64,000 nt of DNA from Candidatus Spongiisociaceae bacterium (GTDB taxonomy: Bacteria > Actinomycetota > Acidimicrobiia > Spongiisociales > Spongiisociaceae). Location: positions 1,440,001 through 1,504,000 of the forward strand of contig OZ253564.1 in assembly GCA_965262915.1 (NCBI GenBank), written 5' to 3'. A program made the position numbers and the translations under genes. Shown here piece after piece: positions 6,668-43,879 of the stretch; positions within the stretch are counted from its first letter, which is position 1; the number at the start of each line of letters is the position of its first letter. Under the pieces are notes generated by a model that was not told the DNA's origin, searched no databases, and was given only the letters and a program-made list of their open reading frames with translations.

Positions 6668-6695
6668 GCTTTACATAACCTGTATTATGGGACAT
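6668..6695 (-). other. dif-like Xer recombination site #1
   Basis: Minus strand atgtcccataa-tacagg-ttatgtaaagc: 11-6-11 layout with a XerD-like arm identical to sites #2 and #3. Confidence 0.75.
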
Positions 6696-6829
6696 CCCCG
6701 AGGCCGGGTACGGCCAGGGTTCGGGCGAGGTCGTCCAAGTTCACGTTAGTTGGCGAATTCTCATAGTCGTGGCGAAAGACGCGTGGCGGAGTTGCTGCGG
6801 TCATGTCCAGCGACTCCCAGCCAGCGTTG

Positions 6830-6955
6830 GTGGCTACCGTGGTCGCCACCGGCGTCACCGCAGACGGCAATCGGGAGATCCTGGGATGTGATGTCGGCAA
6901 CAGCGGGAGCAAAGGGGTTCTGGCAGCAGTTCCTCGTTAGCCTGCGCCACCGTAG
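6830..6955 (+). pseudogene. IS256-family transposase internal fragment
   Basis: VVATGVTADGNREILGCDVG...FWQQFLVSLR. Confidence 0.75.
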
Positions 6956-6985
6956 CGCGGCCGTAGGCCTGGGTACACTGGTCAG

Positions 6986-8263
6986 ATGACGGGCAGCAGC
7001 GAGGCGTCAGCGGCGGAGCTTGCCGAGTTCGTTGCGCTCTTCGATGAGGCCTGCAGTTCGGCCTTGAGAAGTGTGAGTCCTGCGGACGCTCCCTCGTACG
7101 TTCTGAACGGCCAGGCCAGGGCCGAGATTCGTAGGCTTGTCCCACTCGGTGAACGGCGCCGTCTTGGTGCTTTCTTCACTCCCCGCGAACTTGCCGACGA
7201 TGTGGCCTCTTCGCTCCGCTCGGTTCAAGGCCAGGTGACGGTTATCGACCCGTGTAGCGGCGCCGGGGACCTGCTACTCGCTGCCGCTCGTGCCCTAGAG
7301 GAACCCGTGCGAAGTGGCACTGCCCGCGCGAACTTCGTGGGTGTGGACCTCGTCGATGAGTTCTCCCAAGTGGCCCGAATGCGGTTCGAGTTGCTCTCCG
7401 GCCTTTGCGGCCTCGATATGTCTTTCCGCTTCATCACCGGCGATGGGCTGTCCACACCGGATGTCAGTGCCGACACGACTACGCATGTGCTTCTCAACCC
7501 ACCCTTCGCCGTAGTTCCAAGCCACAAGGGCTGCGAGTGGGCACGGGGCAAGGTCAGCGGCGCGGCCGACTTCTTTGCTCGCGTCATTGTACGGTTCCAG
7601 CCTGGAGTCGAGATTTCGGCGATACTGCCTGACGTGCTCCGTAGCGGCTCTCGCTACCGGAGGTGGCGGGACTTCGTCGCGAAACGTCTGGATCTCGATA
7701 CTCCGGAACCGAAGGGTCGCTTCGACTCGTGGACGGATGTCGACGTATTCGTCCTTCGAGGCCGAACACGGCAAACGGAGACAGACCCTCCGGAGATCGA
7801 ATGGGTACCCAGTAACGCTGGGCCGACAGTGGCCGAGCGCTTCGATGTGTCGGTTGGTCCGTTGGTTGACTATCGGTCGTTACTCGATGGCCCAGTCGTG
7901 CCGTACCTGGTGGCCAAGGACTTCCCTACCTGGGGCACTATCTCAAGGGTACAGCGGACTCGTCGGTTTAGCGGACGCCTGCACGAGAGCCCGTTCGTGG
8001 TGATACCAAGGACTTCGCGTCCCGGCGAACCATATCGGGCCCGTGCCGCGGTGGTGACCGATCCCCGTGGAATCGCCGTCGAGAACCATCTGCTAGTTCT
8101 CAGTCCACGGCGGGGGGGCGTCGATGAGTGCAGGCGGCTGATGTGTCGGCTGCAGTCGGAAGAAGTCAACGACTGGCTGGACCGGGTCATTAGGTGCCGC
8201 CATCTGACGGTCGGCGCTGTGGGATCCATCCCGTGGACGCATGGTGAAGGTTTCATCGTCTGA
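6986..8263 (+). CDS. N6-adenine DNA methyltransferase (gamma-type motif order) with C-terminal TRD-like region
   Basis: LGAFFTP, IDPCSGAGDLL (motif I), LLNPPF (motif IV). Confidence 0.88.
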   Translation: MTGSSEASAAELAEFVALFDEACSSALRSVSPADAPSYVLNGQARAEIRRLVPLGERRRLGAFFTPRELADDVASSLRSVQGQVTVIDPCSGAGDLLLAAARALEEPVRSGTARANFVGVDLVDEFSQVARMRFELLSGLCGLDMSFRFITGDGLSTPDVSADTTTHVLLNPPFAVVPSHKGCEWARGKVSGAADFFARVIVRFQPGVEISAILPDVLRSGSRYRRWRDFVAKRLDLDTPEPKGRFDSWTDVDVFVLRGRTRQTETDPPEIEWVPSNAGPTVAERFDVSVGPLVDYRSLLDGPVVPYLVAKDFPTWGTISRVQRTRRFSGRLHESPFVVIPRTSRPGEPYRARAAVVTDPRGIAVENHLLVLSPRRGGVDECRRLMCRLQSEEVNDWLDRVIRCRHLTVGAVGSIPWTHGEGFIV

Positions 8264-10320
8264 TGGCCACGTTCCGGTTCGCGCCCGACATCCTGCGCCG
8301 CCTCGGCGAGGAGCTTAACCCATCGCTGGAGCACAGCGTCATGGAGTTGGTGAAGAACTCCCTCGATGCCGACGCTCAGAACTGCGAAGTCCGACTGAGC
8401 GAAGTGACGTCCCCCGGAGGCGCAATTTTCGTGAGCGATGACGGCGACGGAATGACCGCCGAAGAAATCGTCGACAGCTTTCTACTCCTCGGCCGCTCCC
8501 CTAAGGTCGGTAGCGGCCGGACACGGCGCGGGCGGGTACCGGCAGGCAGCAAGGGCCTCGGCCGGCTCGCGGCCTTGCGAGCGGGCGAGCGTGCGGTGAT
8601 ATCGACAAGACCTAGGACTGATCCCGACCGGGAATATCGTATCGTCCTCGAGTGGTCGGACTTCGACAATGTCGAAGCGATCGAAGATGTCCCGATCGAT
8701 ATCGAGACACGCTGTCGAGGGCCGGCCACTACGACCGGGACCGACATCAGCATCCTCGGCCTCACCGGACGTCTGGGTCGCCGGGAGGTCAAGCGCCTGG
8801 CCAGGGCGCTGGTTCTGCTCGCGGACCCCTTCGGTGACGATCCGTTGGACTTCCGCACGAAGCTTGCGACTCAGGAATTCGAGGACCTCGAAGCACTCGT
8901 GCGCAAGAAGTACTTCGACGCTGCCGAATACAGGCTGGTAGCGCATGTCGGAGGTGACGGGCGGGCGGCGGCGACTGTCAAGGACTGGCGGGGAGAGACG
9001 TTGTACGAGGCTGATCATTGCCAGCTGCGTAAGAGTGAACAGCCCTACCGGTGCCCTCCCGCCCGCTTTGAACTCTGGGTGTTCATCCTCGACGGAAAAA
9101 CGTTCCAGACAAGGAACGCCACGCTCACAGAGGTGAGGGAGTGGCTCACAGAGTTCGGTGGTGTGATGCTCTATGTGAACGGTATCCGTATCCCACCTTA
9201 CGGCGATTCCGGCAATGACTGGCTGGACCTGAATCTGCGGCGCGTCCGAAGCCCCGAGGAACGTCCCAGCACGAACACCTCGATCGGCCGGGTTCGTGTC
9301 GACGACGATGGCGGTGCTTTCACCGAGAAGACCGACAGGTCGGGAGTCATCGAGAACGCGGCCTTCGCTGATCTGCGCCGGATGGCCATTGATGCGCTCG
9401 AATGGATGGCACGGGAGCGCCTCAGGTCGAGGGAAGCGCAGCGCCAGCAAAAGCGTAGCGGATCCGAACCTAAGGAGAAGGTGCTCCGTAACAAGGTCGA
9501 AAGGCAACTCAGCCAGCTGGCGCAGGAGACGCCATCTGGCGCGGAGGCGAGGGATCTATTCGACCGCTACACGAAGGCTCAGGAGCGAGCTCACCGAGCT
9601 ATACGAGAAGAGGTGCAACTCTACAGAACCCTCAGCACAGCGGGGATCGCAGCTGCGACCTTCGCGCACGAGTACGCTGCGGGGCCTCTCAAAGTCATCA
9701 GACGGTCGGTCGCCACTCTCCGTCGGCGTCTCAAAGGCATACTCTTACTCATTCCTGACGATATCGCCGACCCGATCGGGCTGGTCGAGTCGAGTACAAA
9801 CACCCTCGGGACGTTCACCGATGGGACGTTGAGCCTCGTCGACCGCGATAAACGACGGGTGGGACGTATCGAGGTGCACAAGGCGGTCAGCAGGGTGGCC
9901 GAAACATACTTACCCTTTATCGAGGACCGACAGGCCACGCTCGAAATCGAACTCTGCGACGCAAACCCCTACCTACGGAGTTCCGCGGCTGCCATCGAGT
10001 CGATCGTTGTCAACCTGCTAACCAATGCGCTCAACGCCGTGTCGGAGTCGGGCAATTCAAATCGCACGATCCGACTGGCAACGGAATCCTCCGATCATCG
10101 GCTGGTCCTGACCGTCTCGGACAACGGGCCGGGTATCCAGCACTTCGGGATCGACGAGATTTGGCTCCCAGGTGTGACATCAAGGCCGGGAGGCTCGGGC
10201 CTCGGCCTCACAATCGTCAAGGACACAGTGATCGATCTCGGCGGAACTGTGAACGCTATAGCGAGCGGCCCACTCGGCGGAGCGGTATTTGAGGTCACGC
10301 TCCCGATACTCGGGCGATAG
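8263..10320 (+). CDS. MORC/MutL-type GHKL ATPase fused to a histidine kinase
   Basis: N-terminal ELVKNSLDADA, DDGDGM, GSKGLGRLA; C-terminal H-box FAHE, N-box NLLTNALNA, DNGPGI, GSGLGL; TGATG overlap with the MTase. Confidence 0.88.
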   Translation: MATFRFAPDILRRLGEELNPSLEHSVMELVKNSLDADAQNCEVRLSEVTSPGGAIFVSDDGDGMTAEEIVDSFLLLGRSPKVGSGRTRRGRVPAGSKGLGRLAALRAGERAVISTRPRTDPDREYRIVLEWSDFDNVEAIEDVPIDIETRCRGPATTTGTDISILGLTGRLGRREVKRLARALVLLADPFGDDPLDFRTKLATQEFEDLEALVRKKYFDAAEYRLVAHVGGDGRAAATVKDWRGETLYEADHCQLRKSEQPYRCPPARFELWVFILDGKTFQTRNATLTEVREWLTEFGGVMLYVNGIRIPPYGDSGNDWLDLNLRRVRSPEERPSTNTSIGRVRVDDDGGAFTEKTDRSGVIENAAFADLRRMAIDALEWMARERLRSREAQRQQKRSGSEPKEKVLRNKVERQLSQLAQETPSGAEARDLFDRYTKAQERAHRAIREEVQLYRTLSTAGIAAATFAHEYAAGPLKVIRRSVATLRRRLKGILLLIPDDIADPIGLVESSTNTLGTFTDGTLSLVDRDKRRVGRIEVHKAVSRVAETYLPFIEDRQATLEIELCDANPYLRSSAAAIESIVVNLLTNALNAVSESGNSNRTIRLATESSDHRLVLTVSDNGPGIQHFGIDEIWLPGVTSRPGGSGLGLTIVKDTVIDLGGTVNAIASGPLGGAVFEVTLPILGR

Positions 10321-10324
10321 GCCG

Positions 10325-10990
10325 ATGCTCGAACTCGGCGGACGCCGGATCGAAACGGTCGCAATAGTAGACGACGACCCAAAAAGCCGAGACAGCCTCG
10401 CTATGTGCGTCGATGACTCCCCGATCAAGCCATTCCCGCTCGGCGGCCCGCTGGGCAGCATCGAAGCTGTCTACCGGTTGATCCAATCCGAAGCGCAGGG
10501 ATGTATATGCGATCACCAGCTGCAAACAAGAGGACCCTACGCTCGCTTCTCCGGTGCAGAATTGGCGGCTTGGAACAATCGGCATGGTCTGCCGTCCGTC
10601 CTCTGCACGCGATTCATCGAGAGTGACACTCAGATGCCGCTCATCCGAGGATATCTGAAGGACCTACCTGTGCTCCGCAGGCCGGAGCAATTGGAGGAGC
10701 CCGAGCACATCCTCGAGGCCCTTGAGGTATGCGTAGCGGAGTTGAGCGGTTCACTCACTCCCGAGCGGCGCTCCTGGAGGACGCAGGTAGTTGTCGAACA
10801 ACTCGACGCCATGGACCGGACCCTCTCGGTCTCGCTCCCAGCCTGGCAGGTCGATGATCCGGTTCGCGTACGAATAGATGATGTCCCCGCTGGTCTGCGC
10901 GACAGGCTAAAGATCGGATTCTGGACGTTCGTCCGCGCCAACGTCGGTGAATCACAACCGGAATTACTCTACATCGACTGGCCCGACTGA
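10325..10990 (+). CDS. Response-regulator receiver domain + uncharacterised C-terminal beta domain
   Basis: AIVDDD, ICDHQL (phospho-Asp), SGAELA, VLCT; 4 bp after the kinase. Confidence 0.8.
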   Translation: MLELGGRRIETVAIVDDDPKSRDSLAMCVDDSPIKPFPLGGPLGSIEAVYRLIQSEAQGCICDHQLQTRGPYARFSGAELAAWNNRHGLPSVLCTRFIESDTQMPLIRGYLKDLPVLRRPEQLEEPEHILEALEVCVAELSGSLTPERRSWRTQVVVEQLDAMDRTLSVSLPAWQVDDPVRVRIDDVPAGLRDRLKIGFWTFVRANVGESQPELLYIDWPD

Positions 10991-12007
10991 ATGACGAAGG
11001 TCGTCATCTTGGATGTTGGGCACGGTAACTGTGCTGTAGTACAGGACGGCAAGAGATGCCTCGTGGTTGACGCAGGCCCGGGTACTGCGCTACTGGAGTT
11101 CATCCGAGAGGCTGAGATCGACGTCGTGGAGGAGATGCTGATCTCACATGCTGACACCGATCACCTCAAGGGAGTTCAGACTCTACTTGACCAAGATGTG
11201 ATATCTGTCAGAAGTGTGCGTGTCAACAGCGACGCTGCCAAGAACACCGTGCAGTGGGATGGCATGCTGCGTTCGCTAGACGATCGTAACCGTCGGGGGA
11301 CGATTCGTTTCGCAGTACAACTCATGGAAGGTGATCAGATTACATTCTGCGATACCGTCGTGGAAGTACTGGCTCCTAGTGGATACTTAGCGGGCAAGGG
11401 ACCTGGTAGTCGCGATCCAACCGGTCGACGCATCACGACGAACACTGTCAGCGCGGTCGTTCGGGTACGCATGCCTGACCAATCGGTGCTATTCACTGGC
11501 GACCTTGACGAGGTTGGCTTGAAGCTACTCACAGAAACTGATCAAGACTTACATGCTGACGTGCTGGTATTCCCTCATCATGGAGGACACGTCAGTAACT
11601 CTGCTACTCCAGCTCGCAATCGCCGCTTTGCCGAACGGCTGCTATCAGCAGTAAGCCCCAAGATCGTGGTGTTCTCACTCTCACGTGTCAAGTACTCGAA
11701 TCCTCGTCATGAGATCATCGAAGCAGTGAGGACAAATCCGCTTCGAAAGGTGATGTGTACACAAATGTCACAGAACTGTCTCGACGAGGCCCCGAACGAC
11801 GACGAACACCTAGCGAATGTATTCGCCGATGGTAGGCGGTCGGGCCACTGTTGTGCGGGTACCATCGTCATCGCAGGTTCAACTCTTTATCCGTCAGTCT
11901 CCTCCCACACAGACTTCGTGCGTGGAAGGGCCCCTAACGCGCTCTGCAGGCCACTCACCTTAGGGTCAGAGGAGCTAAGAAAGGATGCACTGCTCCCGGA
12001 GCAGTAA
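10991..12007 (+). CDS. ComEC/Rec2-like metallo-beta-lactamase-fold hydrolase (probable nuclease)
   Basis: LDVGHGNC, ISHADTDHLKG, LFTGD, FPHHGG; no TM segments; Cys-rich tail; abuts the receiver gene. Confidence 0.85.
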   Translation: MTKVVILDVGHGNCAVVQDGKRCLVVDAGPGTALLEFIREAEIDVVEEMLISHADTDHLKGVQTLLDQDVISVRSVRVNSDAAKNTVQWDGMLRSLDDRNRRGTIRFAVQLMEGDQITFCDTVVEVLAPSGYLAGKGPGSRDPTGRRITTNTVSAVVRVRMPDQSVLFTGDLDEVGLKLLTETDQDLHADVLVFPHHGGHVSNSATPARNRRFAERLLSAVSPKIVVFSLSRVKYSNPRHEIIEAVRTNPLRKVMCTQMSQNCLDEAPNDDEHLANVFADGRRSGHCCAGTIVIAGSTLYPSVSSHTDFVRGRAPNALCRPLTLGSEELRKDALLPEQ

Positions 12008-12270: not shown

Positions 12271-13170
12271 TCACATTTGTTCGACGTAGCTGGCAGCGAT
12301 GTGTTCGGGTGGGTTGGTGTAGCGGGCTATGTACTGTTGGGATCGGTGGCCGAGGCGTCGTTCGAGTTCGTAGGGGTCGGCGTTGGTGGCTTGGGCGAGC
12401 CCGAACGCGAACGTGTGGCGCAGGTCGTGGGGTCGGAGCGGACTGATGTGGCGTTGGGGTTCGGTATGTTCTGCGTCGTGGATTCGGCCGATACGTTCGA
12501 GGATGGTGTTGATGCTGCGGCCGGAGAGGCGCCCGTCCGGGCGGCGGCTGTTCACCGAAGCGGCGGACAGGAACAACGCGGTGGACTCGTCGGTGGCGTC
12601 GGCCGGTCGTTCCTTCTCCAGGTAGTCGGCTAGTGCGTGGCGGGCGTCGACGGAGAGGAAGACTGTGCGCTGAGTTTTTCCTTTGCCCCGAACACCTACG
12701 ATCCGGGCGCGGCGGGCGGCACGCAGCAGTGCTGGTCGGGACGGTTGAACCTGGTCGAGGTCAAGCAGCACAAGTTCGAGGCGTCGGAGTCCGGTGGACA
12801 ACAGCACGAACACGATTGCACGATCTCGGACGGGTCGGCTGTGGCCATGCAGCCGAGGCGGATCCCCTCTCCCCCGCCGCCGGCCCTTACGTTGGCTGTA
12901 TCTTTCCAGCCGATCGCATAGGTTCTTGAGTGATCTCACCTGTCCCGGGGCGAGGCTGCGCGGTTCCAACGGTGGTAGCGGCAACGCAGAGACACCGGTG
13001 GACGGGTTTCCGGTCGCGAACAGCCCGGGCTCTTGTGCGCTCACCCAGGTGGTGAATCCCGACAGCGACGCTAGATGATTGTTGACAGTGGCCGGAGCCA
13101 ACGTGTCGGCGAGTCTACGCTGCCAGTCGATCACGTCGCGGCGGCCTACGGGGGGGATCCCTTCGTGCCT
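12271..13170 (-). CDS. Tyrosine recombinase type A (5' end apparently replaced/truncated)
   Basis: RDRAIVFVLLSTGLR, GKG, HDLRHTFA, LGH, IARYT; core-binding domain starts abruptly. Confidence 0.85.
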   Translation of the reverse strand, partial: RHEGIPPVGRRDVIDWQRRLADTLAPATVNNHLASLSGFTTWVSAQEPGLFATGNPSTGVSALPLPPLEPRSLAPGQVRSLKNLCDRLERYSQRKGRRRGRGDPPRLHGHSRPVRDRAIVFVLLSTGLRRLELVLLDLDQVQPSRPALLRAARRARIVGVRGKGKTQRTVFLSVDARHALADYLEKERPADATDESTALFLSAASVNSRRPDGRLSGRSINTILERIGRIHDAEHTEPQRHISPLRPHDLRHTFAFGLAQATNADPYELERRLGHRSQQYIARYTNPPEHIAASYVEQM

Positions 13171-13481
13171 TTCGTGAAGGGAATCCGGGGAGTTACGACC
13201 TCTATTTCGGGCCTGGGGTGCTGCCAGGGTACTGGTTGCCTTCACAGAAGGGGCATTCCCTGAACCAAACCTATACCACCCCCGAAACCGCCCCCGACCC
13301 GTGAGGTGTTACGTCGCATAGTGGTGAGGCTCACGGCCTGGCGGAACCTCCTCGCAGGGAGACCCGCCCGGTTCTGGTCATCGAGATAGCCCTTGCCCTG
13401 CATGGCCATCGACCGTGACCGACGAGGTAAGGGCTACCCCTTACCTACGGCAGAGGACACCGATTCGACGTCCCCCCGGGT

Positions 13482-14510: not shown

Positions 14511-14697
14511 TTCCCGCCCAGACCCCCCGTACACCACAAGAACGGACGCCACCAACCCTCCGATGTGGGGCGGTAGTGCACATATGGGACGGATATGTGC
14601 AATACCCGCACCACCCGAAACGCTGTGACCAGGCGGTTCGTGTCCGACCTCACGATAGTTGGCGAATTTTCACGGACGTGGCGAACTTTTTCATCTA

Positions 14698-15068: not shown

Positions 15069-15510
15069 TCACATGTGTTCGATGTAGCTGGCGGCGATGT
15101 GTTCGGGTGGGTTGGTGTAGCGGGCTATGTAGCGTTGTGATCGGTGGCCGAGGCGGCGTTCGGGTTCGTAGGGGTCTGCGTTGGTTGCTTGGGCGAGCCC
15201 GAACGCGAATGTGTGGCGGAGGTCGTGGGGTCGGAGTGGGCTTATGCGGCGTTGGGGTTCGGTGTGTTCTGCGTCGTGGAGCCGGCCGATGCGTTCGAGG
15301 ATGGTGTTGATGCTTCGTCCGGCGAGGCGCCCGTCGGGGCGGCGGCTGCTCACCGATGCGGCGGATAGGAACAATGCGGTGGACTCGGGGGTGGCGTCGA
15401 CCGGTCGTTCCTCCTCGAGGTAGTCGGCGAGGGCGTGGCGGGCGTCGACGGAGAGGAACACGGTTCGCTGGGTTTTTCCTTTGCCCCGAACACCCACAAC
15501 CCGGGCGCGG
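15069..15510 (-). pseudogene. C-terminal duplicate of tyrosine recombinase type A
   Basis: Highly similar to 12271-12715; fused to an IS256 scar. Confidence 0.85.
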
Positions 15511-18657: not shown

Positions 18658-19236
18658 TGAGCCTCACCGGGTTTCACGCAGGCTGTTTGTTGTGAGTCTC
18701 AGCCTGGTTGGGGGCGCAGCTCCCCGTCCCGGCGGCTGCGGGCCGATCGGCGTTCGGGTTCCCGTTCCCGCCGTTTGTGCTCGCAAGGAGACAGACGGGG
18801 CGATCGGCAACTCAGCACAAATCGGCTCGACCCCATAGGCCTTTCGGTGATCGTCGATGAAGGTGGTCATCTCCGGGGTCGGCGGTCGAACACCTCTGCC
18901 TGGGCGAAATACGCAGACGCCTAACCCAAGATCTCATTCGCCCGCCGCAGCTCCCGGCGCAAGGCTCTGAGCCGCTCCCGCTCTGGACAGCTCAACCCAG
19001 GCCGCAGACCCTGATCCGTCTCAGCACGCCGAACCCATTTGCGTAGCGTCTCCGACGAACACCCGAACTTCTCCGCTCCCGAACAGATAGCCGCCCACCC
19101 AGAACGGTGCTCCCCCCGATGCTCTGACACCATCCGGACAGCACGCTCCCGCACCTCCGGCGAATACATCATCAGTCTTCCCATGACTCCATTATCTCCC
19201 AACTAATCGAGTCTCCGGAAAACCCGGTACGGTTCA
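18658..19236 (-). mobile_element. Internally deleted IS3-family element (relative of 52114-54893)
   Basis: Degenerate orfA and orfB start almost identical to 54370-54893; ends tgagcctcaccgggttt / aaacccggtacggttca. Confidence 0.85.
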
Positions 19237-20758: not shown

Positions 20759-23700
20759 TTGACGCGTCGAGCACTATCTCGTCTTGGGCGGCGAGGCACT
20801 GGAAGAGAGCCTTATGTGGATCAACCCCGACAATCATGCTCTTGGTCCTTGGTCTCAGAAAGATGGGACATCCCGGGAGAGCCAACCCAGCCAGCGACCT
20901 ACCATACGCTACGACCCCACAGCCACAGCGACGAGCCTCCACATACAAGTCGGTGGTTCAAATTGCACATAGTTTGGGCTGTTCGGGTGTCGGGTTGTCA
21001 GAGGAGGCTTTTGGTGGGACTGGGTCGGGTTTTGGTGGTTTTGGTGGTGGTGGGCTCGGTTTTGGCTCCGGGGTCTGGGGTGGGGTTTGGTGATGTTGCC
21101 GCAGCGCAGACGGCCGGTGAGCCGTGTGATGCGGGTTCGGCTGTTCAGTTCCCCGATGTTGGGGTGGGGGATTACGCCGCGGAATATGTTCTGTGTATGC
21201 GGGTGTTGGGCTTGTCGGTGGGTGGACGTGACGGTGGGTACGGTCCCGACGCGGAGTTGACCCGGGGGCAGATGGCATCGTTTTTGGTGCGTCTGTGGCG
21301 CGACGTGTTGGGTCGGGGCTGTCCTGATGATGTTGTGCTGCCGTTTGTGGATGTGGCGGGTACCACCCATGAGACCAACATTGGCTGTTTGTACGGGTTG
21401 GGGATCACCATGGGTACTACTGCCACCACTTATGGGCCCGACGACAGGTTGAAGGCGTCGCAGATTTCGCGGTTCTTGTTGCGGGTTTATGAGAAGACTG
21501 GTGGCCGCTGCGACGCTGTGGGTGGGGAACTGGAACGTGGGTTGGAGTGCCTCGTTGGTTTACGGGTGATCCCGTCGGAGGCTGAAGGTGGGGACGACGG
21601 GTCGGTGACCCGGGCGCAGATGGCGGTGTATGTGGTCGGGTTGTGGCACAACGTTTCGGGCCGTGGTGTAGCCCCACCACCACCTGCGAAAGGGACAAGC
21701 CCCGCAGTCGGCGGCACACAGCCTGAACCAACCGAGAACGAACCCCCACCCGCCGGTTCGTTCACCGCGGTGTCCGCCGGCGACTTTCATTCGTGTGCGC
21801 TTCGCGCCGACGGTTCGGTTGTGTGCTGGGGCAGCACCGAGGATGGGCAGGCGACGCCGACGCCACCGTCGGGTTCGTTCACTGCGGTGTCCGCCGGCGA
21901 CTTTCATTCGTGTGGGGTTCGTACCAGTGGTTCGGTTGTGTGCTGGGGTGACAACGAGTACGGGCGGGCGACGCCACCGTCGGGTTCGTTCACTGCGGTG
22001 TCCGCCAGCTACTTTCATTCGTGTGGGATTCGTACCGGTGGTTCGGTTGTGTGCTGGGGCGGCACCGGGTCTGGGCGGGCGACGCCGCCGTCGGGTTCGT
22101 TCACCGCGGTGTCCACCGGCGTCTTTCATTCGTGTGCGCTTCGTACCAGCGGTTCGGTTGTGTGCTGGGGCGACAACACATATGGGCAGGCGACGCCGAC
22201 GCCACCCGCCGGTTCGTTCACCGCGGTGTCCGCCGGCGACTTGCATTCGTGTGCGCTTCGTACCAGCGGTTCGGTTGTGTGCTGGGGCAGCAACGAGTAC
22301 GGGCAGGCGACGCCACCCACCGGTTCGTTCACCGCGGTGTCCGCCAGCACCTCGCATTCGTGTGGGATTCGTACCGACGGTTCGGTTGTGTGCTGGGGTG
22401 ACAACTGGGCTGGGCGGGCGACGCCACCGTCGGGTTCGTTCACTGCGGTGTCCGCCGGCGAATGGCATTCGTGTGGGGTTCGTACCAGCGGTTCGGTTGT
22501 GTGCTGGGGTGACAACACGGATGGGCAGGCGACGCCACCCACCGGTTCGTTCACTGCGGTGTCCGCCGGCGACTTGCATTCGTGTGCGCTTCGCGCCGAC
22601 GGTTCGGTTGTGTGCTGGGGCAGCAACGAGTACGGGCAGGCGACGCCGACGCCGCCGTCGGGTTCGTTCACTGCGGTGTCCGCCGGCGACTTGCATTCGT
22701 GTGCGCTTCGTACCAGCGGTTCGGTTGTGTGCTGGGGCGACAACACATATGGGCAGGCGACGCCACCCACCGGTTCGTTCACCGCGGTGTCCGCCAGCAC
22801 CTCGCATTCGTGTGGGATTCGTACCAGCGGTTCGGTTGTGTGCTGGGGTGACAACTGGGCTGGGCGGGCGACGCCACCGTCGGGTTCGTTCACTGCGGTG
22901 TCCGCCGGTTTCTGGCATTCGTGTGGGGTTCGTACCAGTGGTTCGGTTGTGTGCTGGGGTGACAACACGGATGGGCAGGCGGCGCCACCCACCGGTTCGT
23001 TCACCGCGGTGTCCGCCGGCACCTTGCATTCGTGTGGGGTTCGTACCAGCGGTTCGGTTGTGTGCTGGGGCCACAACGAGTACGGGCGGGCGGCGCCACC
23101 CACCGGTTCGTTCACCGCGGTGTCCGCCGGCACCTTGCATTCGTGTGGGGTTCGTACCAGCGGTTCGGTTGTGTGCTGGGGCAACAACGAGTACGGGCAG
23201 GCGACGCCACCGTCGGGTTCGTTCACCGCGGTGTCCGCCGGCGACTTGCATTCGTGTGGGGTTCGTACCGACGGTTCGGTTGTGTGCTGGGGCCACAACG
23301 AGTACGGGCAAGCGACGCCACCCACCGGTTCGTTCACCGCGGTGTCCGCCGGCCACTTGCATTCGTGTGCGCTTGGTACCGACCGTTCGGTTGTGTGCTG
23401 GGGCAGCAACGGGTCTGGGCAGGCGACGCCACCCGCCGGTTCGTTCACTGCGGTGTCCGCCGGCAGCTCGCATTCGTGTGGGGTTGGTACCGACCGTTCG
23501 GTTGTGTGCTGGGGCAGCAACGGGTCTGGGCAGGCGACGCCACCCGCCGGTTCGTTCACTGCGGTGTCCGCCGGCAGCTCGCATTCGTGTGGGGTTGGTA
23601 CCGACGGTTCGGTTGTCTGCTGGGGCCACAACGAGTACAGGCAGGCGACGCCACCTGCGGGTTCGTTCACCGCGGTGTCCGCCGGCGGCCAGCATTCGTG

Positions 23701-24109: not shown

Positions 24110-24185
24110 TGCCACTGCGGTGTCCGCCGGCTTCTGGCATTCGTGTGCGCTTCGTACCAGCGGTTCGGTTGTCTGCTGGGGCCGT
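21755..24185 (+). repeat. 111/117-bp tandem array: 21 coding units + 1 out-of-frame unit after the stop
   Basis: Units counted directly from the translation. Confidence 0.95.
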
Positions 24186-35707: not shown

Positions 35708-35911
35708 GGGGTTAGCGGAATATTTGGACGGGATGGTGCGGTTTCGGGGGGTTGCCGTGGAACGTTTCGCTCCGGGCGCTGGGGGTGGATGCTGGGGACG
35801 GTCTGCTGGTAGTCATTGGCTGTGGCCGGGGTCACCGTAGAAAATGGACAAGAGACAACGGTTTCGTTGCGGACCTGTAGGGGTTGGGTTGGCGTCAGCG
35901 GAGGGATCTAA
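35708..35911. mobile_element. Two orphan Tn3-type ends stacked in the same orientation (35708 and 35828)
   Basis: ggggttagcggaatatttggacg (as at 28517) and ggggtcaccgtagaaaatggacaa (as at 26475). Confidence 0.8.
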
Positions 35912-36416
35912 GGGGTGACCGTAGTAAATGGACAAAATGTTACGGTTTCAGGGGGGTCCGTAGGGGTCGGTGTTGGCCGTGGGGTGGTGGTGTGGGGTTG
36001 GTGAAGTCGTATCGGCCCGAGGGCGCCTCTCCTACGAACGAGCATGCACAGCCTTCAGGGAAGCCAGCGGCGGGTTGACCCTCCACCAACTCCGCCACTC
36101 CTCCCTCACCCACCTCGGTGAAGCCAGCGCGTCGGCATGCTGCTCCAAGGCAAAGCCGCCACCGTGACCTCCGCACCCTCGGCCGCTACACCAAACCAGG
36201 TACCGAAGCCGTCGCCGCCCTCGCCACCCACTTCGACAACAGCCGCTAACAGCACACGACCGAACAGGGCAGCGAAATAGCCAACCACACGGCAACACGA
36301 CTACCGGAGGCTGATCCCGACAGCCAAATACCACCCAACACCAGCCGACTGCGGCAGCAGGTACTGACCGCTGGTCATGAAACCGTAACATTTTGTCCAT
36401 TTACTACGGTCACCCC
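35912..36416. mobile_element. Tn3-derived miniature element (505 bp), third IR family
   Basis: Perfect 38-bp IRs ggggtgaccgtagtaaatggacaaaatgttacggtttc; tnpA tail (minus) and recombinase tail LHQLRHSSLTHL...RYTKPG (plus). Confidence 0.9.
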
Positions 36417-36479
36417 CAACACCGGTCCGGTGATCTCCACCGATTCACGCTGCTATCCCCCTAACCAGCGGAAACGTAC

Positions 36480-37316: not shown

Positions 37317-37340
37317 GGGGTCTCCGGAATATTTGGACGG

Positions 37341-38750
37341 TGGTCTCAATCGGTGAACGCAACGGATGGCTGTCTTGTAGCTTAGAGTTGAGGTAGTGAA
37401 GCGGCGTGTCAGTCCCCGTTGTTTCGGCCGTGTGAGGTTTAGAGGAGTGTTTCGTCGCAATATCTCCGTGGAGGCTCCTTGTGGTCGTGGGTCGTCTCAA
37501 TGACCAACGCCGTGGGCATCGGAGTGTTCAAGATGTTTGTTTGGTTACGGCTGTTAATGCTTGGTGGGGTGTTTGCCAGCCGAGGGTCTGGCGTGGTCGG
37601 TTGTTTAGTTCTGCTGCTACCTGGTCGTACGCTCTCTGGTCGAGCTTGTAGAAGTTGGTTGACTTGGGGAAATACTGGCGGAGCAGCCCGTTGGTGTTCT
37701 CGTTGGTTCCGCGCTGCCAGGGACTGTACGGGTCGCAGAGGTAGACTTCGATACCGGCCTTCTCCCGGAGGGTCTTATGGCCGGCGATCTCCTTGCCCTG
37801 ATCCCACGTCAACGTTCTACGCAGAGTGGGCGGGAAGGCTTCGAGCTGGGCGGCTATCGCGTTGTTCAGTGCCTCAGCGGTGCGGCTCCCTGGGAGGGCA
37901 GCCAGTATCAGGTACCGGGTCTTGGGTTCCACCAGGGTAGCCACGGCGGTTACTCGGTTCCCCACCAGTAGATCTCCTTCCCAATGCCCAGCCTCCTCAC
38001 GGGTTTCAACTACGCCGGGTCGGGCTGAGATCAAGACAGGATCCCTGATCACACCCTGGCCTCTCCCTCGACGATGCCCTGTCCGTGGTGTTCGAGCAGC
38101 ACGGCGGGTGCGAAGGCATCGCCACAGTTCTTTGCGGAGCACACCACGATGATGGGCGTACACAGACCGGTAGATCGTCTCGTGGCATACCCACATCGAC
38201 GGGTCAGTCGGGTACTCGGTACGAAGCCACCCCGAGATCTGCTCGGGTGACCACCGAACTGCCAGTTTGCTCTCCACGAGGATCCGCAGGCGGCTGTTAG
38301 CGGCGAGTTTGGGCACCTTCGGACGTTTCGCTCGTTCACGGACTCGATCCTCAGCGTCAACAGCCCGATAGGCACCCCGCCCACCGTTGGTGTTCACTTC
38401 ACGACAGATCGTCGAGGGCGCGCGGTCAAGCCGCCTGGCTATCGACCGCAACGACTCACCCGCTACCAGCCCCCAAGATATCTCTTCTCGGTCCATCAGC
38501 GACATCCGAGCCGAAGACCAAGCAGGCGGCCCCACAGGCCGCCGGAACCCGTGACGGGCCACATAGTCCCGCACCGTGCTCAACGGCCGCCCGACCGACG
38601 CCGCTATCTCCCTCAAAGTCTGACCAGCCTCGTACCGATCCCAAATCTCTGTCTGTTCCACAGTATTCATATGACGGCCCATCACAACACCTCCTACCCA
38701 TCCCGACTGGTATTTCCAGACCTAGGTGTTGCGTTGACCCTCTGAGGCCA
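37341..38750 (-). mobile_element. IS30-family element (with an extra IS30 end fragment at the left)
   Basis: Ends tggtctcaatcggtgaacgcaac / reverse complement tggcctcagagggtcaacgcaac (18/23 identical). Confidence 0.75.
37528..38685 (-). CDS. IS30-family transposase
   Basis: WSPEQISG, GHWEGDL, TWDQGKE, SPWQRGTNENTNGLLRQYFPK. Confidence 0.95.
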   Translation of the reverse strand: MMGRHMNTVEQTEIWDRYEAGQTLREIAASVGRPLSTVRDYVARHGFRRPVGPPAWSSARMSLMDREEISWGLVAGESLRSIARRLDRAPSTICREVNTNGGRGAYRAVDAEDRVRERAKRPKVPKLAANSRLRILVESKLAVRWSPEQISGWLRTEYPTDPSMWVCHETIYRSVYAHHRGVLRKELWRCLRTRRAARTPRTGHRRGRGQGVIRDPVLISARPGVVETREEAGHWEGDLLVGNRVTAVATLVEPKTRYLILAALPGSRTAEALNNAIAAQLEAFPPTLRRTLTWDQGKEIAGHKTLREKAGIEVYLCDPYSPWQRGTNENTNGLLRQYFPKSTNFYKLDQRAYDQVAAELNNRPRQTLGWQTPHQALTAVTKQTS

Positions 38751-40822: not shown

Positions 40823-40850
40823 ATGTCCGATAATGAACATTATGTAAAGC
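40823..40850 (+). other. dif-like Xer recombination site #2
   Basis: atgtccgataa-tgaaca-ttatgtaaagc. Confidence 0.8.
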
Positions 40851-41350
40851 TACGGCTGCGGTGTTTCCCCAGGTAGATGACGGTTTCGGGGTAGGGCCGT
40901 CCGGGTCGTGCATAAACCGTCCCAGCCACGGTCGAATATGCGACAGTTAATACCGGTCGACGATGGTCGGCAGAGACCCGGCTGGTTGACGAGCTCCCGG
41001 CGGGTACCGTTAACCCCCTATGAGCAGAGTCCGCCCCCCAGGGCGCCCACCACCCACATATCCCCCCGGCCGCTACTGCGCCACCGACAGCTGAACGGCG
41101 CGCCTATCCATCTACAACCCGACCGACCACTGCAACCTCCACACCCCCCTCCGACGCCGACCCGCACTGAGCCGCCGACGCTGGTGAGACCATTCAGGCG
41201 GGTAACCGCTGTCGGCGGCCGGCCGAGCCCCCAGCGGAAAGGAGTGTCCGCTGCCTGTCACCCGGGCGAACAGCCAAAGTATCCGGTTCCCCCCAGCACG
41301 CCGTGGCGGCGAAACTCCTCGAAGAGGGTTTCGGGCGGAAACGCCCCAAA
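40851..41350 (+). repeat. Long modular non-coding repeat, most complete copy
   Basis: 40851-41000 matches the reverse complement of 43705-43851; 41000-41245 matches the reverse complement of 51068-51312; 41270-41350 matches 45205-45280 and the reverse complement of 48843-48913. Confidence 0.85.
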
Positions 41351-41427
41351 CCCTGTCTCCAGCCCGCCGGGGCGGGTACACGCCCCGGCATGGCCATGTT
41401 GGAAAGCTGCGGGAGGGGGGCCGGCGG

Positions 41428-43398
41428 CTATGGGACCAGAAGTTGCCCGAACCGGACTATTTCCTCGTTGAATTCGTCGAAATCGGCGGTGAGCGTAAGA
41501 GTCATACCGACAACTCGGGGGCCGTCATCAGTGTGTCCCTCGATGGCCTCATCGAGGGATGGAATAAAGCTGTGCCCGAACTCCCAGATCTCGTCGAGTA
41601 TGTGGGCGTTCGTGGTTGACAGCAGCTCAACGACACGTTCTGCGTCAGGGTCGACGCGAACAGCGCGGCAGCGCAATGTCCAGCGGGCGCTGTCCTCCCA
41701 GACCTGGGCGAGGCGGCGCGCAGCAGCGGCGATCTCGATCGGGTCTCCTGACACCTGTGGGAGGTAGTCGTTGACGATGGCCGTTGCTGTGCTCGTGTAC
41801 CCACTGAATTCGTGCATCCTGTCCTGTGCCCACGGGGCGAAATCGTTTAGGGCGTGTTCACCTAAAGTTACACTGATGTGATATCATTACGATATGACAA
41901 TAACACAAGAACAATACCAACTCATAGTAGACGTGTTCCCGAAACCCCGCGGTACCGTCAAGGTATCCAACCTCCAAGCCCTCAACGGCATCCTGTACGT
42001 ACTGGAGCACGGCTGCAAGTGGCGGGCGCTTCCCGAACGGTTCGGGAACTGGCACACCGTTTACATGCGGATGAGCCGCTGGGCGGCCAGCGGCGTCTTG
42101 GACCGGGTGTTCCAGCGTCTACAGCAGGAACAGCTCATCGACCTCGAAGTTCTGGGCCTGGACAGCACGTCGGTCAAGGTTCATCCCGACGGCTGTGGTG
42201 CTCTCCGAAAGCGGGGTCCCCAGGCCATCGGTCGCTCCCGGGGAGGGTTGAACACCAAGATCCACATGGTCGCGGCCAGCGCTTGTAGCGCCGTCTTATT
42301 CGCTCTTTCCCCAGGTCAGGACCATGATGCTCCCCATGGGCGGGAGCTCCTCAAAAAGATGGGCCCACGAAAAAAGGAGCAGGAAGGGGAGCAGCTAGAG
42401 CTGTTCCTGGTAGCGGACCGCGCCTATGAAGGGGACGAAACACGGCAACTGGCCGTCGCTCTGGGCTACACGCCGGTCATCCCACCCCGAAGCAACCGCC
42501 GCCACCCGTGGGACTACAACCGTCCGATATACAAGCGACGGAACGAGGTCGAACGGCTCTTCCGACGGCTCAAAGGCTACCGGCGTGTCTTCACCCGCTA
42601 CGACAAACTCGACGTGATGTTCCTAGCATTCATCACCCTCGCGCTCATACACGACACGCTCAGAAACGTAACACGCCCTAGGTTGATGTGGGTCACTTCG
42701 GCTTGAGCGAGCCGATACTCGATCTCGCGGCGTAGCGGTGCTCGACGATCCAGTTCTGCTTCGAGGACTGTTCCAAAGAGCCTGATTTCCCAGAGCGTGT
42801 CGCGTCGAAGCGCCACCATCAGCGCGTCGCCGGCGAGCTCCTCTAGGAGACGGTCGTGGCCATGTGCCTTCTGATGGAGAGCGAGGGCGTCTTGCACGAG
42901 GTATGCGAACTGCTGGCGCAAGGTGTCAACGATGTCCTCGGTGGCAGTAAACGAGAATGTCCAGACGTCGCCACTCTCGCGGAACGAATCTATGAACTCG
43001 AAAACGCGCGGCGTGTCGACGACGCCGGAGTAGTCGGCGTCGGGGTTGCTCCGCCACACACTCAACTGTGCAAGAACGTCGCTGTCGACGAAGACGTACG
43101 TGGGTACGCCCCGTGCTCGGGCTTCAAGAAATTCGAGGTTGGTGACGGACTTGTCGGTATCGGGGTCGACCGAGCCGTACCGCGCGCCGACAACCATCAC
43201 GAAGATATCGGCGTTCTCTCGGACGTTCCTCACGCTGTTGGTGACCGTCGTCTGGTTCGCGTCGATCGGGAACGAACCGTGCTCGGCCATCACGGCACGC
43301 CAACCGAGTCCCCCTATGAATTGGCGAAGCTGCGAGCGGAGATGGTTGAGGTCGTACATGGTCGAACTCACGAAGACATTTGGTGGTCGGTTCTTCAC
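41428..43398 (-). pseudogene. DUF4062-domain protein interrupted by IS5
   Basis: VFVSSTMYDL...ADIFVMVVGARYGS...SVTNLEFLEA; removing the IS and one TA restores the frame ...THINL-NDFAPWAQDRMHEF... Confidence 0.88.
41850..42678 (+). mobile_element. IS5-family element (IS427-like) with TA duplication; transposase 41894-42706
   Basis: IRs gggcgtgtt / aacacgccc; GCKWRALP, LDSTSVKVH, ADRAY, YKRRNEVERLF. Confidence 0.93.
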
Positions 43399-43851
43399 TG
43401 GCCACTCCGTTCAGTCGCAGGAGACGCCCTCGGGCACTTTAGGGCCGAATCCCGGATCACCACCCCGTCGGCGAGGACCCCGACGGGGAGCTGTGGCACT
43501 GACTTGTCCTGAGACGCTCGGCCGGCCTAACTCCCCCCTGAGCCCCGCCCAGCGGAGGGGTCCTCCGCTGGAGGGACTCAGGAGGTGGTAGGGAGGGGCG
43601 GCCTCTCCTGCCTCGCACCGAAAGGTGGCGCCGGGGGCCCCCACACCCAACGGATCCAGCGGCACCGGGGTCAGGAATCGATGCTGACCCCTCCGAACAT
43701 GCGGGAGCTTGTCTACTAGCCCGGTCTCCGCTGACCATCGTCGACCGGTATTAACCGTCGCATATTCGACCGTGGCTGGGGTGGTTTATGCACGACCTGG
43801 ACGGCCCTACCCCGAAACCGCCATCTACCTGGGGAAACACCGACGGGCGTG

Positions 43852-43879
43852 GCTTTACATAATATCTATTATCGGACAC
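43852..43879 (-). other. dif-like Xer recombination site #3
   Basis: Minus strand gtgtccgataa-tagata-ttatgtaaagc; inverted relative to site #2. Confidence 0.8.

Follow-up and report, generated by a model that had tools for sequence, protein, structure and literature searches.

IMEX elements such as CTX-phi, TLC-phi, VGJ-phi and the gonococcal island use dif-like sites without having an integrase of their own. In cer, psi and the IRS of Tn4430, a core recombination site is joined to accessory sequence on one side, which in cer and psi is the XerC side. In Acinetobacter, dif modules bounded by pdif sites are described from plasmids and chromosomes (PMC13141974, PMC12907356, PMC6449649), and insertion sequences of the IS1202 family are described as targeting pdif and dif sites (PMC10132070).

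Here, we analyzed a stretch of 64,000 nucleotides (the window) from an actinobacterium whose genome contains 4 WhiB genes. The original prediction of three 28-bp dif-like sites with different spacers held in full: the consensus has exactly three matches in the window when up to 3 mismatches are allowed (sites 1 to 3, Table 1), and none of 100 dinucleotide-preserving shuffles of the window gave a match. The orientations were also as predicted. Sites 2 and 3 are inverted and flank a DUF4062 ORF, sites 1 and 2 are inverted too, and the ATG of the N6-methyltransferase ORF (6986) is 291 bp past the end of site 1, where a gap of about 290 bp had been given. Our best explanation, to which we assign a probability of roughly 0.55 as a whole, is that the window contains two different kinds of dif-derived tyrosine-recombinase site and not one system. 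Site 1 would be a copy of the dif locus with an island at a neighboring site of another type (class C), and sites 2 and 3 would be members of a genus-specific repeat with cores on which Xer enzymes act.

Table 1. Features discussed in the text, in window coordinates
Feature	Position	Strand	Description or basis
Fic/DOC-family gene fragment, XerD side of site 1	3928-4154		94% identity to dif-adjacent Fic gene
Site 1	6668-6695	-	ATGTCCCATAA TACAGG TTATGTAAAGC (own strand); dif-like core, class A2, lineage-dif arms
Extension of ~30 bp, XerC side of site 1	6696-6725	-	Sequence comparison with other dif-like sites
attL, left attachment repeat (class C site)	6723-6777	+	~55-bp direct repeat with 14631-14686
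Island cargo: N6-methyltransferase, GHKL/HATPase protein, 233-aa ORF, metallo-beta-lactamase-fold protein	6986-12007	+	Pfam, PADLOC
Tyrosine integrase of island	12271-13245	-	Pfam Phage_integrase
attR, right attachment repeat (class C site)	14631-14686	+	Direct repeat of attL
C-terminal integrase fragment	15069-15497	-	Direct repeat D4, 91% identity to 12271-12570; XerD-model match
Site 2	40823-40850	+	ATGTCCGATAA TGAACA TTATGTAAAGC (own strand); dif-like core, class B, XerC arm TGTCCGATAA
A module: core and ~150-bp conserved XerD-side arm	40824-40999	+	Genome matches, alignment
B module: truncated copy of a separate ~520-bp non-coding repeat	41001-41232	+	12 genome copies
C module: 3' flank accompanying the DUF4062 gene	41223-41357	+	Sequence comparison
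DUF4062 gene, split by IS	41398-43446	-	Pfam; paralogue, orthologue
IS5-family insertion sequence (DUF4096 and DDE_Tnp_1)	41847-42683	+	Pfam; copies
D module: 5' flank of DUF4062 cassette, REP-like GC-rich hairpin	43444-43571	+	Sequence comparison
A' module: inverted A-module copy	43702-43878	-	90% identity; inverted repeats I3, I15
Site 3	43852-43879	-	GTGTCCGATAA TAGATA TTATGTAAAGC (own strand); dif-like core, class B

Between site 1 and sites 2 and 3, the XerC arm (C versus G), the class of the spacer and both flanks differ. Hence, what appeared as one family with an invariant arm and a variable spacer is really two families. Judged by their sequences, all three sites are close mimics of the lineage dif: their arms fall inside the natural variation of single dif sites across the same bacterial family, and the G variant of the XerC arm belongs to the sole site of G009 and of G014. 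The chromosomal dif, with which a comparison had been proposed, is the site at genome position 2308072. It has two-sided gene synteny with G002 and G007, its spacer (TGCACG) is the genus consensus, and skewed octamers flip their orientation at 2.30-2.45 Mb, a range that contains it.

The genome has multiple dif-like sites. We counted 15 (4 of class A and 11 of class B) with up to 5 mismatches allowed and matches with at least 5 treated as noise-like, whereas relatives mostly have one: a matching site is present in 14 of the 18 other genomes of the family and is single in 11 of these 14, while G001, G005 and G006 each have one dif-type site and 1-2 class B sites. All 7 genomic occurrences of TTATGTAAAG fall within dif-like sites, and the genome encodes XerD-like and XerC-like genes. 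Eight sites between 1.26 and 1.48 Mb alternate in orientation with one exception. Inverted pairs around single-gene cassettes occur in both arrangements, with the XerD arms or the XerC arms facing inward; the pair at 1260856/1262060 is a C-type module, and the pair of sites 2 and 3 is a D-type module. The spacer of site 3 recurs at genome position 1427951.

Where does site 1 come from? It is probably a paralogue of the chromosomal dif locus. The Fic fragment on its XerD side is 94% identical over ~227 bp to the Fic gene adjacent to the syntenic dif of G000 (2296528-2296754), G002 and G007, of which the intact gene of G007 has DUF4172 and Fic domains by Pfam. The extension on its XerC side is common only to the dif-like sites at 2850963 and 4016100, with ~14 bp of it also present at 2308072.

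The island next to site 1 is 7.85 kb long and has its own tyrosine integrase and a flanking direct repeat of ~55 bp. The attachment site (class C) has a GTCCGA-type left arm, a different right arm and GGCGAA repeats; attL consists of a GTCC-type left arm, the core TCACGTTAGTTGGCGAATT and a GTGGCGAA repeat, and begins 28 bp beyond the XerC arm of site 1. In this genus, the class C site is located ~35-45 bp from dif or dif-like cores: in G002, the motif is next to the true dif, at a distance similar to that at site 1, and in G001 and G007 its left arm is next to the dif. Moreover, the syntenic dif has DNA homologous to the integrase (84% identity) 3.8 kb away, in the same arrangement; such DNA is also present at 2862324 (95%), and attR is ~90% identical over 109 bp to genome positions 2861930-2862040, beside another integrase fragment. 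On this reading, an integrase hotspot adjoining dif, rather than exchange at the dif-like core, accounts for the methyltransferase operon being near site 1. The proposed capture of defense cargo is correct in that the local tyrosine integrase captured defense-like genes (the N6-methyltransferase gives a weak mad2-like match) next to site 1. The island would have inserted at the class C site, leaving the direct repeat behind; entry at the dif-like core was rejected, given the position of attL. The nearby C-terminal integrase fragment suggests the remnant of a neighboring island of the same type, and tandem accretion.

Two inverted arms of ~177 bp with 90% identity have sites 2 and 3 as their outermost 27 bp. 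The two sites belong to a repeat, restricted to this genus and with 11 cores in the genome, in which a dif-like core is followed on the XerD side by a conserved non-coding arm of ~150 bp. The A module gives 13 genome matches, fragments included, and has invariant blocks in an alignment of 15 sequences; neither an RNA structure nor a promoter or Rfam match was predicted in the arm. The homology between class B copies begins at the XerC arm's outer edge, or as much as ~40 bp farther out, and extends ~170 bp inward, and its extent is alike between G001-like contigs and G000. The XerD arms of sites 2 and 3 face inward and enclose a cassette with the D flank, the DUF4062 gene, the C flank, a nested B repeat and, as a later arrival, the IS. 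An intact paralogue of the DUF4062 gene is present at genome positions 302771-303925 and an orthologue in G001. The IS5-family element interrupting the gene is 836 bp long and has ten other copies at at least 99% identity; contigs from runs X5 and X9 have 41846 joined to 42678 and no IS. The flanks of the pair show no target-site duplication, phage or plasmid genes are absent from the segments between the two sites, and the class B loci examined in relatives have no dedicated recombinase accompanying the sites.

The original prediction overlooked the ~177-bp inward arm homology, the IS in the DUF4062 gene and the differences between site 1 and sites 2 and 3. The region is dense in nested repeats: the B, C and D modules, REP-like hairpins, MITEs whose terminal repeats are 40 bp long, and IS5, IS30 and IS3 elements.

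We hypothesize that host XerC and XerD bind the dif-like cores, that class-specific spacers allow a core to exchange only within its own class and prevent a reaction with the true dif, and that the XerD-side arm serves as accessory sequence. Occasional core-to-core exchange would link different XerC-side and XerD-side segments, and most recent change in the region would be due to homologous exchange of one arm with another, to IS insertion and to nested repeats. Sites 2 and 3 have spacers unlike at 3 of 6 positions, and by the spacer rule described for Acinetobacter such a pair would not readily recombine (PMC13141974).

The evidence for shuffling at dif-like cores is mixed, and only one of several breakpoints examined is inside a core. 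In the recent duplication 1260717/1428116, the boundary of divergence is inside the core spacer. The inverted duplicates (1260717-1263492 and 1428116-1425343) have 16 mismatches in 154 bp between the A-module end and spacer position 1260870, only ~10 over the next 2.2 kb, and unlike sequence beyond the A module. The other end, near 1263492, has no recognizable dif-like core, and given the invariance of the XerC arm, the spacer breakpoint at 1260870 could be imitated by a gene-conversion tract reaching the edge of homology. This duplication agrees with the expectation that breakpoints coincide with spacers, but other loci do not: the D-DUF4062-C cassette of G001 has no class B site within ~1.3 kb, in G005, a duplicated unit of 974 bp contains the core and has its breakpoint in the conserved arm, and in runs X6 and X9 a contig joint connects the two arms at 40915/43774, 53-67 bp inside the arm. 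None of the 15 joints listed from public runs, which have 24 further joints, is at a core. The truncation of an XRE-type gene at genome position 2894336 lies 16 bp outside the XerC arm.

The breakpoints outside the cores, including the joint within the arm, would also be expected if the family of sites 2 and 3 were a passive MITE- or REP-like repeat or an element scar with a dif-derived end by chance. Such a relic would have no present Xer role and would spread or rearrange only by homologous recombination, segmental duplication and the insertion of other elements. We consider this the most serious alternative but rather unlikely. The many other nested repeats crowding the region are consistent with it, as are the class B sites of G005, which are within variable islands and not at island borders. 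However, many copies match the lineage dif near-perfectly at the 21 arm positions, against a divergence of 10-30% in the adjacent arm, which argues for selection on the core. In addition, the repeat is not consistently accompanied by a transposase, the pair of sites 2 and 3 lacks a target-site duplication, and the in-spacer boundary would be an unlikely spot for a homologous crossover, as it falls in the final 13-16 bp of a 177-bp stretch of homology.

Could the class B core and arm be a multimer-resolution site of the cer/psi or Tn4430 IRS type, left by integrated and broken-up plasmids or transposons? The copies would then mark former replicon or transposon backbones and not cassette borders. 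The architecture fits, with a core of ~27 bp, a one-sided conserved arm free of predicted RNA structure or promoter, and invariant short blocks, one of which (GTGCATAA) resembles a XerC-type half-site; moreover, the copies are concentrated where mobile elements abound, near integrase fragments. We nevertheless find this improbable, as the repeat gave no match in 72,556 plasmid records, 50,697 phage records and a viral contig collection, replication or transposition genes do not consistently accompany the copies, the arm extends from the XerD side, and many copies form inverted pairs around single genes, which resolution does not need. Least probable of all is that the three window sites are scars of tandem IMEX elements using host Xer enzymes, as had been proposed: the genome has multiple dif-like sites, at 2850963 a class A core with extension is directly followed by an A module (class B flank), and variable DNA adjoins the true dif in several genomes, but 0.8 Mb separates the window from the syntenic dif, sites 2 and 3 have an inverted and not a direct arrangement, the intervening segments lack phage or plasmid genes, the island at site 1 has its own integrase and flanking repeat, and there are no viral or plasmid matches.

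Under the preferred reading of two kinds of dif-derived site, the locus shares features with several known systems. As in the Acinetobacter pdif modules described, there are many sites of XerC arm, 6-bp spacer and XerD arm beyond the main dif, with alternating orientation, spacer classes and inverted pairs around small accessory-gene modules in both configurations. Unlike in those descriptions, the host is an actinobacterium, the context is chromosomal and without a Rep_3/OrfX plasmid backbone, every class B core has a conserved XerD-side arm of ~150 bp, the spacers of sites 2 and 3 differ at half of their positions, and only one of several breakpoints is inside a core. The pdif-style architecture originally suggested survives in the dif mimics, the inverted single-gene cassettes and the one in-spacer boundary, but not as one system of three sites. 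The site at 2850963 resembles the host-element junction of an IMEX, whereas the sites of the window are neither at dif nor in direct repeat and lack phage or plasmid genes and matches in viral, phage or plasmid collections. Conserved accessory DNA of ~120-200 bp on one side of a core is also known from cer, psi and the Tn4430 IRS; here it is on the XerD side, and the copies are located on the chromosome, are often inverted and flank cargo genes. The site 1 island is like attL/attR tyrosine-integrase islands in its integrase near one end, its direct repeat, its defense-type cargo and the truncated integrase of the same family next door, and unlike them in that its attachment site is a Xer-like hybrid and not a tRNA gene. 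It also differs from the IS1202 family as described, being an integrase island at an attachment motif and not an IS with terminal inverted repeats and target duplication, but both show repeated landing of mobile DNA close to the XerC arm of dif-type sites, at a constant spacing.

The original prediction placed three 28-bp dif-like sites in the window, and all three are present, oriented as claimed and with 291 bp between site 1 and the methyltransferase open reading frame (ORF). The consensus it gave, with up to 3 mismatches allowed, matches the 64-kb window at these 3 places and nowhere else, and none of 100 shuffled versions of the window contained any match to the site consensus. The genome is a single 5.06-Mb contig with 64% G+C, of which the window takes up positions 1,440,001 to 1,504,000. 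It contains 4 WhiB genes and is therefore actinobacterial. Its numerous tyrosine recombinase genes include a single XerD-like gene and a single XerC-like gene, the latter at genome position 2013458-2014300. A fuzzy genome scan with the site consensus, the first check proposed, returned 15 sites at up to 5 mismatches; whole-genome matches at 5 to 7 mismatches resemble noise. The sequence TTATGTAAAG occurs 7 times in the genome, each time inside a dif-like site. Two core classes can be distinguished, namely, class A (TGTCCCATAA-N6-TTATGTAAAG; 4 sites, including site 1) and class B (TGTCCGATAA-N6-TTATG(TAAAG/ACAAC)C; 11 sites, including sites 2 and 3). The arms of site 1 are those of the dif of the genus, the last base excepted. 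Sites 2 and 3 are one base off the genus dif in the XerC arm (G for C), and this variant is the form of the sole site in each of two related genomes, G009 and G014. The available text on the dif proposed for Frankia alni (PMC3025954) gives the same CCGATAAT...ACATTATGT core; hence, classes A and B are ordinary actinobacterial dif-type sequences. A search for degenerate partner cores near the three loci yielded nothing beyond noise at 5 to 7 mismatches, and no missing partner site was present near genome position 1388055.

All three sites derive from dif, and sites of this type are unusually numerous in the genome. To this extent the original interpretation stands, but its view of the sites as one system does not: two unrelated structures lie in the window, namely, a duplicated dif locus that adjoins an integrase island and a cassette framed by a genus-specific core-plus-arm repeat.

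Coordinates of dif-type sites, repeats, and other features in the window and in the rest of the genome (site sequences are given on their own strand)
Feature	Frame	Position	Strand	Remarks
Site 1, class A	window	6668-6695	-	ATGTCCCATAA-TACAGG-TTATGTAAAGC
Site 2, class B	window	40823-40850	+	ATGTCCGATAA-TGAACA-TTATGTAAAGC
Site 3, class B	window	43852-43879	-	GTGTCCGATAA-TAGATA-TTATGTAAAGC
Other class A sites	genome	2308072; 2850963; 4016100		
Class B pair	genome	1260856/1262060		XerC arms inward, around a DUF4352 gene
Class B pair	genome	1426747/1427951		XerC arms inward, DUF4352 gene; inverted copy of 1260856/1262060
Class B pair	genome	514425/515813		direct repeat, 266-amino-acid ORF between
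Inverted duplicates, 2.8 kb	genome	1260717-1263492; 1428116-1425343		
Island attL/attR	window	6723-6777; 14631-14686		direct repeat of ~55 bp, XerC side of site 1
Island tyrosine integrase	window	12271-13245		
Class C motifs	window	6748; 14657		
Class C motifs	genome	2297690; 2308009; 2861999		
Class C motif	L053 (G002)	10035-10106		
XerD-like gene	genome	2402673-2403542		
IS5-family copy	genome	2404252-2405087		as in window
Partial XerD-like ORF	genome	2405559-2406209		model positions 2-218
B elements	window	41001-41232; 51079-51312		
B element, example	genome	1385692-1386204		
XRE-type HTH gene, intact	genome	1431996-1432388		
XRE-type HTH gene, truncated	genome	2894293-2894730		
Inverted C-module copies	window	45237; 48882		opposite-strand joint
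Skipped stretch	window	47158-48312		383-amino-acid ORF at 47160-48311
Duplicated stretch	window	45825-47158		98% copy at genome 2848109-2849442, adjoining site 2850963
MITE-like elements	window	26471-26864; 28517-29002; 35895-36433		also 2739-2777
Tandem repeat	window	21732-24167		inside ORF 20759-24109
REP-like palindromes	window	20267; 28484; 43550; 45833; 48920; 51330		
Defense and mobile elements	window	62-1807; 55916-58483; 50098-50805; 63168-63262; 18796-18915; 54447-54563; 37528-38685		

We searched 30 relatives, including 18 other genomes of the same family, for dif-like sites. A match was found in 14 of these 18 genomes, and 11 of the 14 have a single site; G001, G005, and G006 each have one dif-type site and one or two class B sites. 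The spacer at 2308072 is TGCACG, as in the single sites of G001, G002, G007, and G013, and the genes to either side of this site are in synteny with those at the dif of G002 and of G007. Skewed octamers, with the strand bias learned outside the 2.2- to 3.0-Mb interval, change orientation at 2.30 to 2.45 Mb, with the maximum at 2,378,953. On synteny, spacer, and octamer skew, we take 2308072 as the probable dimer-resolution site. The cumulative GC skew is flat from 2.4 to 2.85 Mb and peaks at 2.855 to 2.875 Mb, beside the class A site at 2850963. This site, nearest to the GC-skew maximum, was rejected as the true dif on the same synteny, spacer, and octamer data, which favor 2308072; the syntenic dif at 2,308,072 and the octamer switch lie about 0.5 Mb away from the skew maximum. 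The comparison with the chromosomal dif that the original prediction called for sets the window apart, 0.8 Mb away from the syntenic dif. A chromosomal dif is a single-copy site at the terminus; the window sites belong to a set of 15 copies, and the window is at 1.44 to 1.50 Mb. The XerD-like gene of this genome is followed by a copy of the IS5-family element seen in the window and then by a second, partial XerD-like ORF.

What remains of the dif neighborhood at site 1 is a Fic fragment and the class C motif, an integrase-type attachment motif near dif. The fragment, of 227 bp, lies 2.5 kb off on the XerD side and is 94% identical to the Fic/DOC gene that adjoins the true dif in this genome, G002, and G007. 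The true dif also has integrase DNA 3.8 kb away; this DNA is 84% identical to that of the window and matches it in side and strand. Given the Fic fragment, the class C motif, and the dif-near integrase, site 1 is a paralogous copy of the dif locus. On its XerC side, the core continues into an extension of ~30 bp that is common to 2850963 and 4016100 and, for ~14 bp, to 2308072; the dif flanks of relatives share nothing with it. Two explanations of this extension were rejected: protein coding, as, judging from the sequences, the copies do not preserve the reading frame, and the terminal repeat of a dif-targeting element, as the genome has no independent or inverted copy.

The methyltransferase island is bounded by the attL and attR repeats, with the common core TCACG(T/A)TAGTTGGCGAATT, a GTCC-type arm before it, and a GTGGCGAA repeat after it. 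It carries genes for an N6-methyltransferase (weak mad2-like match), a GHKL ATPase, a metallo-beta-lactamase-fold protein, and the tyrosine integrase, along with a 233-amino-acid ORF and two small ORFs, and a truncated integrase of the same family lies just past the right repeat. Both features of a tyrosine-integrase island, an integrase and flanking direct repeats, are thus found beside site 1. The island entered, as its repeats indicate, at the integrase attachment site adjoining site 1 and not at the dif-like core. In 7 genomes of the genus, nothing syntenic with the window flanks was found.

The class C motif, an Xer-like hybrid, combines a GTCCGA-type arm with a short spacer, (A/T)AGTTGGCGAA, and GGCGAA repeats. 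In this genome and G002, the motif lies ~35 to 45 bp from dif, to one side or to both. It stands ~37 bp past the XerC arm of the G002 dif and 37 bp past the XerD arm of the true dif of this genome, which has more copies (table); its left arm adjoins the dif sites of G001 and G007. In the genome under study, ~10 kb of extra DNA lies between dif and the Fic neighbor, with two class C motifs flanking it. The class C motifs beside dif look like a hotspot of island accretion. Both sides of dif would then be an integration hotspot in the genus, with its own Xer-like attachment motif that could serve as a marker for defense islands in relatives.

Sites 2 and 3 belong to a different kind of element. 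Class B copies are homologous from the outer end of the XerC arm, or from as much as ~40 bp beyond it, to ~170 bp on the XerD side, and we call this unit the A module. The inverted arms at sites 2 and 3 are 177 bp long and 90% identical. In an alignment of 15 A-module sequences, copies from G001, G005, and G006 included, invariant blocks (GTTTCCCCAGGTAGA, GGTTT, a GCATAA-type block, and CACG...ATATGC) extend to ~150 bp from the core and are confined to the XerD side. An RNA element was rejected (RNAalifold gave 0 pairs on 15 copies), and Rfam at gathering thresholds found no family in the A module; a promoter or terminator was also rejected (0 promoter-like sites, terminator-like sites at chance level). 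From site 2 to site 3, the order is A module, truncated B element, C flank, minus-strand DUF4062 gene, D flank containing a REP-like hairpin, and inverted A module. The DUF4062 gene is interrupted by an 836-bp IS5-family element, of which there are ten more near-identical copies and which is absent at this position in the contigs of two public sequencing runs. Other class B sites form pairs around single genes (table), and single sites adjoin a PLD-like gene, a DUF2971 gene, and a truncated XRE gene. The B element is a non-coding repeat of ~520 bp with 12 copies at 80 to 95% identity; it starts with GGGTACCGTGAACCCCCTATGAGCAGAG, stops at a REP-like hairpin, and frequently adjoins A modules but also stands alone.

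In the databases searched, the A-module repeat was found in this genus only, in 1 contig of a species-representative genome collection and 4 metagenome contigs. The metagenome contigs are all G001-like, and all five contigs have chromosomal contexts resembling G001; viral contigs, plasmids, and phages gave no match. An Xer-like integrase at 1430745 was rejected as the dedicated class B recombinase, with no homologue in the class B loci of relatives. No empty site for the module of sites 2 and 3 was found in the relatives; in G007, homology to the left flank stops ~75 bp short of site 2, past which the sequences diverge. The search for an orthologous empty site of the G005 copy placed its class B unit inside a variable island and not at the island border.

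Does exchange occur at the cores? The class B arms are within the natural range of genuine dif sites, and the cores are nearly perfect, whereas the adjoining arm is 10 to 30% diverged. At 2850963, a class A core with its extension is joined to an A module, and the homology between the G001-like contigs and this genome begins at the core. The 2.8-kb inverted duplicates have 16 differences over the 154 bp from the A-module end to spacer position 1260870 and only ~10 in the next 2.2 kb, which puts the divergence boundary inside the spacer of site 1260856; past the A module, they run into different DNA. One XerC-side segment joined to two XerD-side partners by core exchange would give this pattern. 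A gene-conversion tract reaching the homology edge could imitate a spacer breakpoint, because the XerC arm is invariant, and the other end of the inverted duplication has no dif-like core. Elsewhere, a 974-bp unit duplicated in G005 includes the core and has its breakpoint within the arm, and no class B site lies within ~1.3 kb of the D-DUF4062-C cassette of G001. At the class B site at 2894293, an XRE-type HTH gene, intact at another locus, is truncated 16 bp beyond the XerC arm. The boundary in the 1260856 spacer speaks for the expectation that cargo varies with breakpoints at the spacer; the G001 cassette, the G005 unit, and the XRE gene speak against it.

Public runs were used as Logan contigs aligned at 90% likeness. 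In the contigs of two runs (X6 and X9), an opposite-strand joint connects the two arms at 40915/43774, and diagnostic differences place this arm-arm crossover 53 to 67 bp inside the arm. Among 15 of the 39 joints in the contigs of four public runs, where contigs drop rare variants, none lies at a core. Joints such as 43736>51466 are probably from paralogous copies, since the contigs were aligned at 90% likeness. Three of the 6 spacer positions are different between sites 2 and 3, and site 3 has the spacer of site 1427951; the rearrangements seen in Acinetobacter (PMC13141974) are between sites whose spacers are the same or nearly so. Exchange by Xer at the cassette sites is plausible, with one good trace in the sequence. 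Most of the recent changes in the region have causes other than Xer exchange at these sites.

The window contains further repeats and mobile DNA. The contigs of all four public runs have the opposite-strand joint between inverted C-module copies and a join that skips exactly the 383-amino-acid ORF. Three MITE-like elements (~390 to 540 bp) are bounded by ~40-bp terminal inverted repeats of the GGGGT(T/G)ACCGTAG(A/T)AAATGGACAAAA type, and a tandem repeat of 20 copies of a 111-nt (occasionally 117-nt) unit lies inside a 1,116-amino-acid ORF. The REP-like GC-rich palindrome CAGCGGAGG(A/G)(C/G)(C/T)CCTCCGCTGG is intergenic and forms the core of the D module. Defense and mobile elements are also plentiful in the window, among them a GmrSD-type restriction enzyme, a KAP-family NTPase that carries an RDD domain, a T5orf172/MUG113 protein, a group II intron domain, a pair of IS3 frameshift pseudoknots (ALIL), and transposases of the IS30 family. 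A copy of one IS30 element, 99% identical, is inserted directly behind the B module at genome position 308619.

Our wider reading, to which we give roughly one chance in four, is that the genus runs a chromosomal counterpart of the Acinetobacter dif modules. XerCD would shuffle single-gene cassettes, many of them defense-like, between class B cores, with the XerD-side arm of ~150 bp replacing FtsK as the activator, and Xer-related integrases would stack islands at hybrid sites flanking dif. The spacer classes would serve as a set of addresses, with TNCNCG at the true dif, TA..GG at duplicated dif loci, and NRRAYA at cassette sites, and these addresses would hold cassette exchange off the dimer-resolution site. 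Movable gene modules framed by extra dif-like sites are documented almost only in Acinetobacter. If the reading is true, the hijacking of Xer for cassette exchange is not limited to one genus, as it occurs in a high-GC actinobacterial chromosome with 15 dif-type sites, class-specific spacers, and a conserved accessory arm. This chromosome would also be a natural setting in which to study the parts that spacer identity and accessory DNA play in directing Xer recombination away from the terminus. With inert class B sites, the finding would shrink to a well-characterized repeat family and an ordinary integrase island.

The Acinetobacter dif modules are the closest described system to the class B sites. 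Both have multiple XerC/spacer/XerD sites, C-type and D-type modules, and spacer classes, and the pdif-like alternation of orientation is seen here, with XerD arms inward at sites 2 and 3, XerC arms inward at other pairs, and one direct pair. In contrast to the Acinetobacter modules, the sites here are chromosomal, in an actinobacterial host, and have a conserved arm of ~150 bp at every core, and clear core-centered rearrangement products are so far without example. Reacting pdif sites have identical or near-identical spacers, unlike the pair of sites 2 and 3. In a limited literature search, dif modules were found described for Acinetobacter only, and IMEX were unmentioned in the papers found with actinobacterial or Xer/dif terms. 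The core with a one-sided accessory sequence resembles cer/psi-type resolution sites, for which ~150 to 200 bp is typical, but the context is chromosomal, no plasmid matches, and many copies are inverted. Inverted arms are present as in MITEs or insertion sequences, but the flanks of sites 2 and 3 (ggggatgtga and ccgctgcccc) show no target-site duplication, and no transposase is consistently linked to the A-module repeat. The IMEX reading offered in the original prediction has little support, as there are no direct dif-like repeats at the host dif (the window is 0.8 Mb off, and sites 2 and 3 are inverted) and no extrachromosomal phage or plasmid form was found among viral contigs, plasmids, and phages. 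Hence, IMEX, cer/psi-type sites, and MITEs each match some features of the sites and fail others. The methyltransferase island is an ordinary tyrosine-integrase island, except that its attachment site is dif-adjacent and Xer-like.
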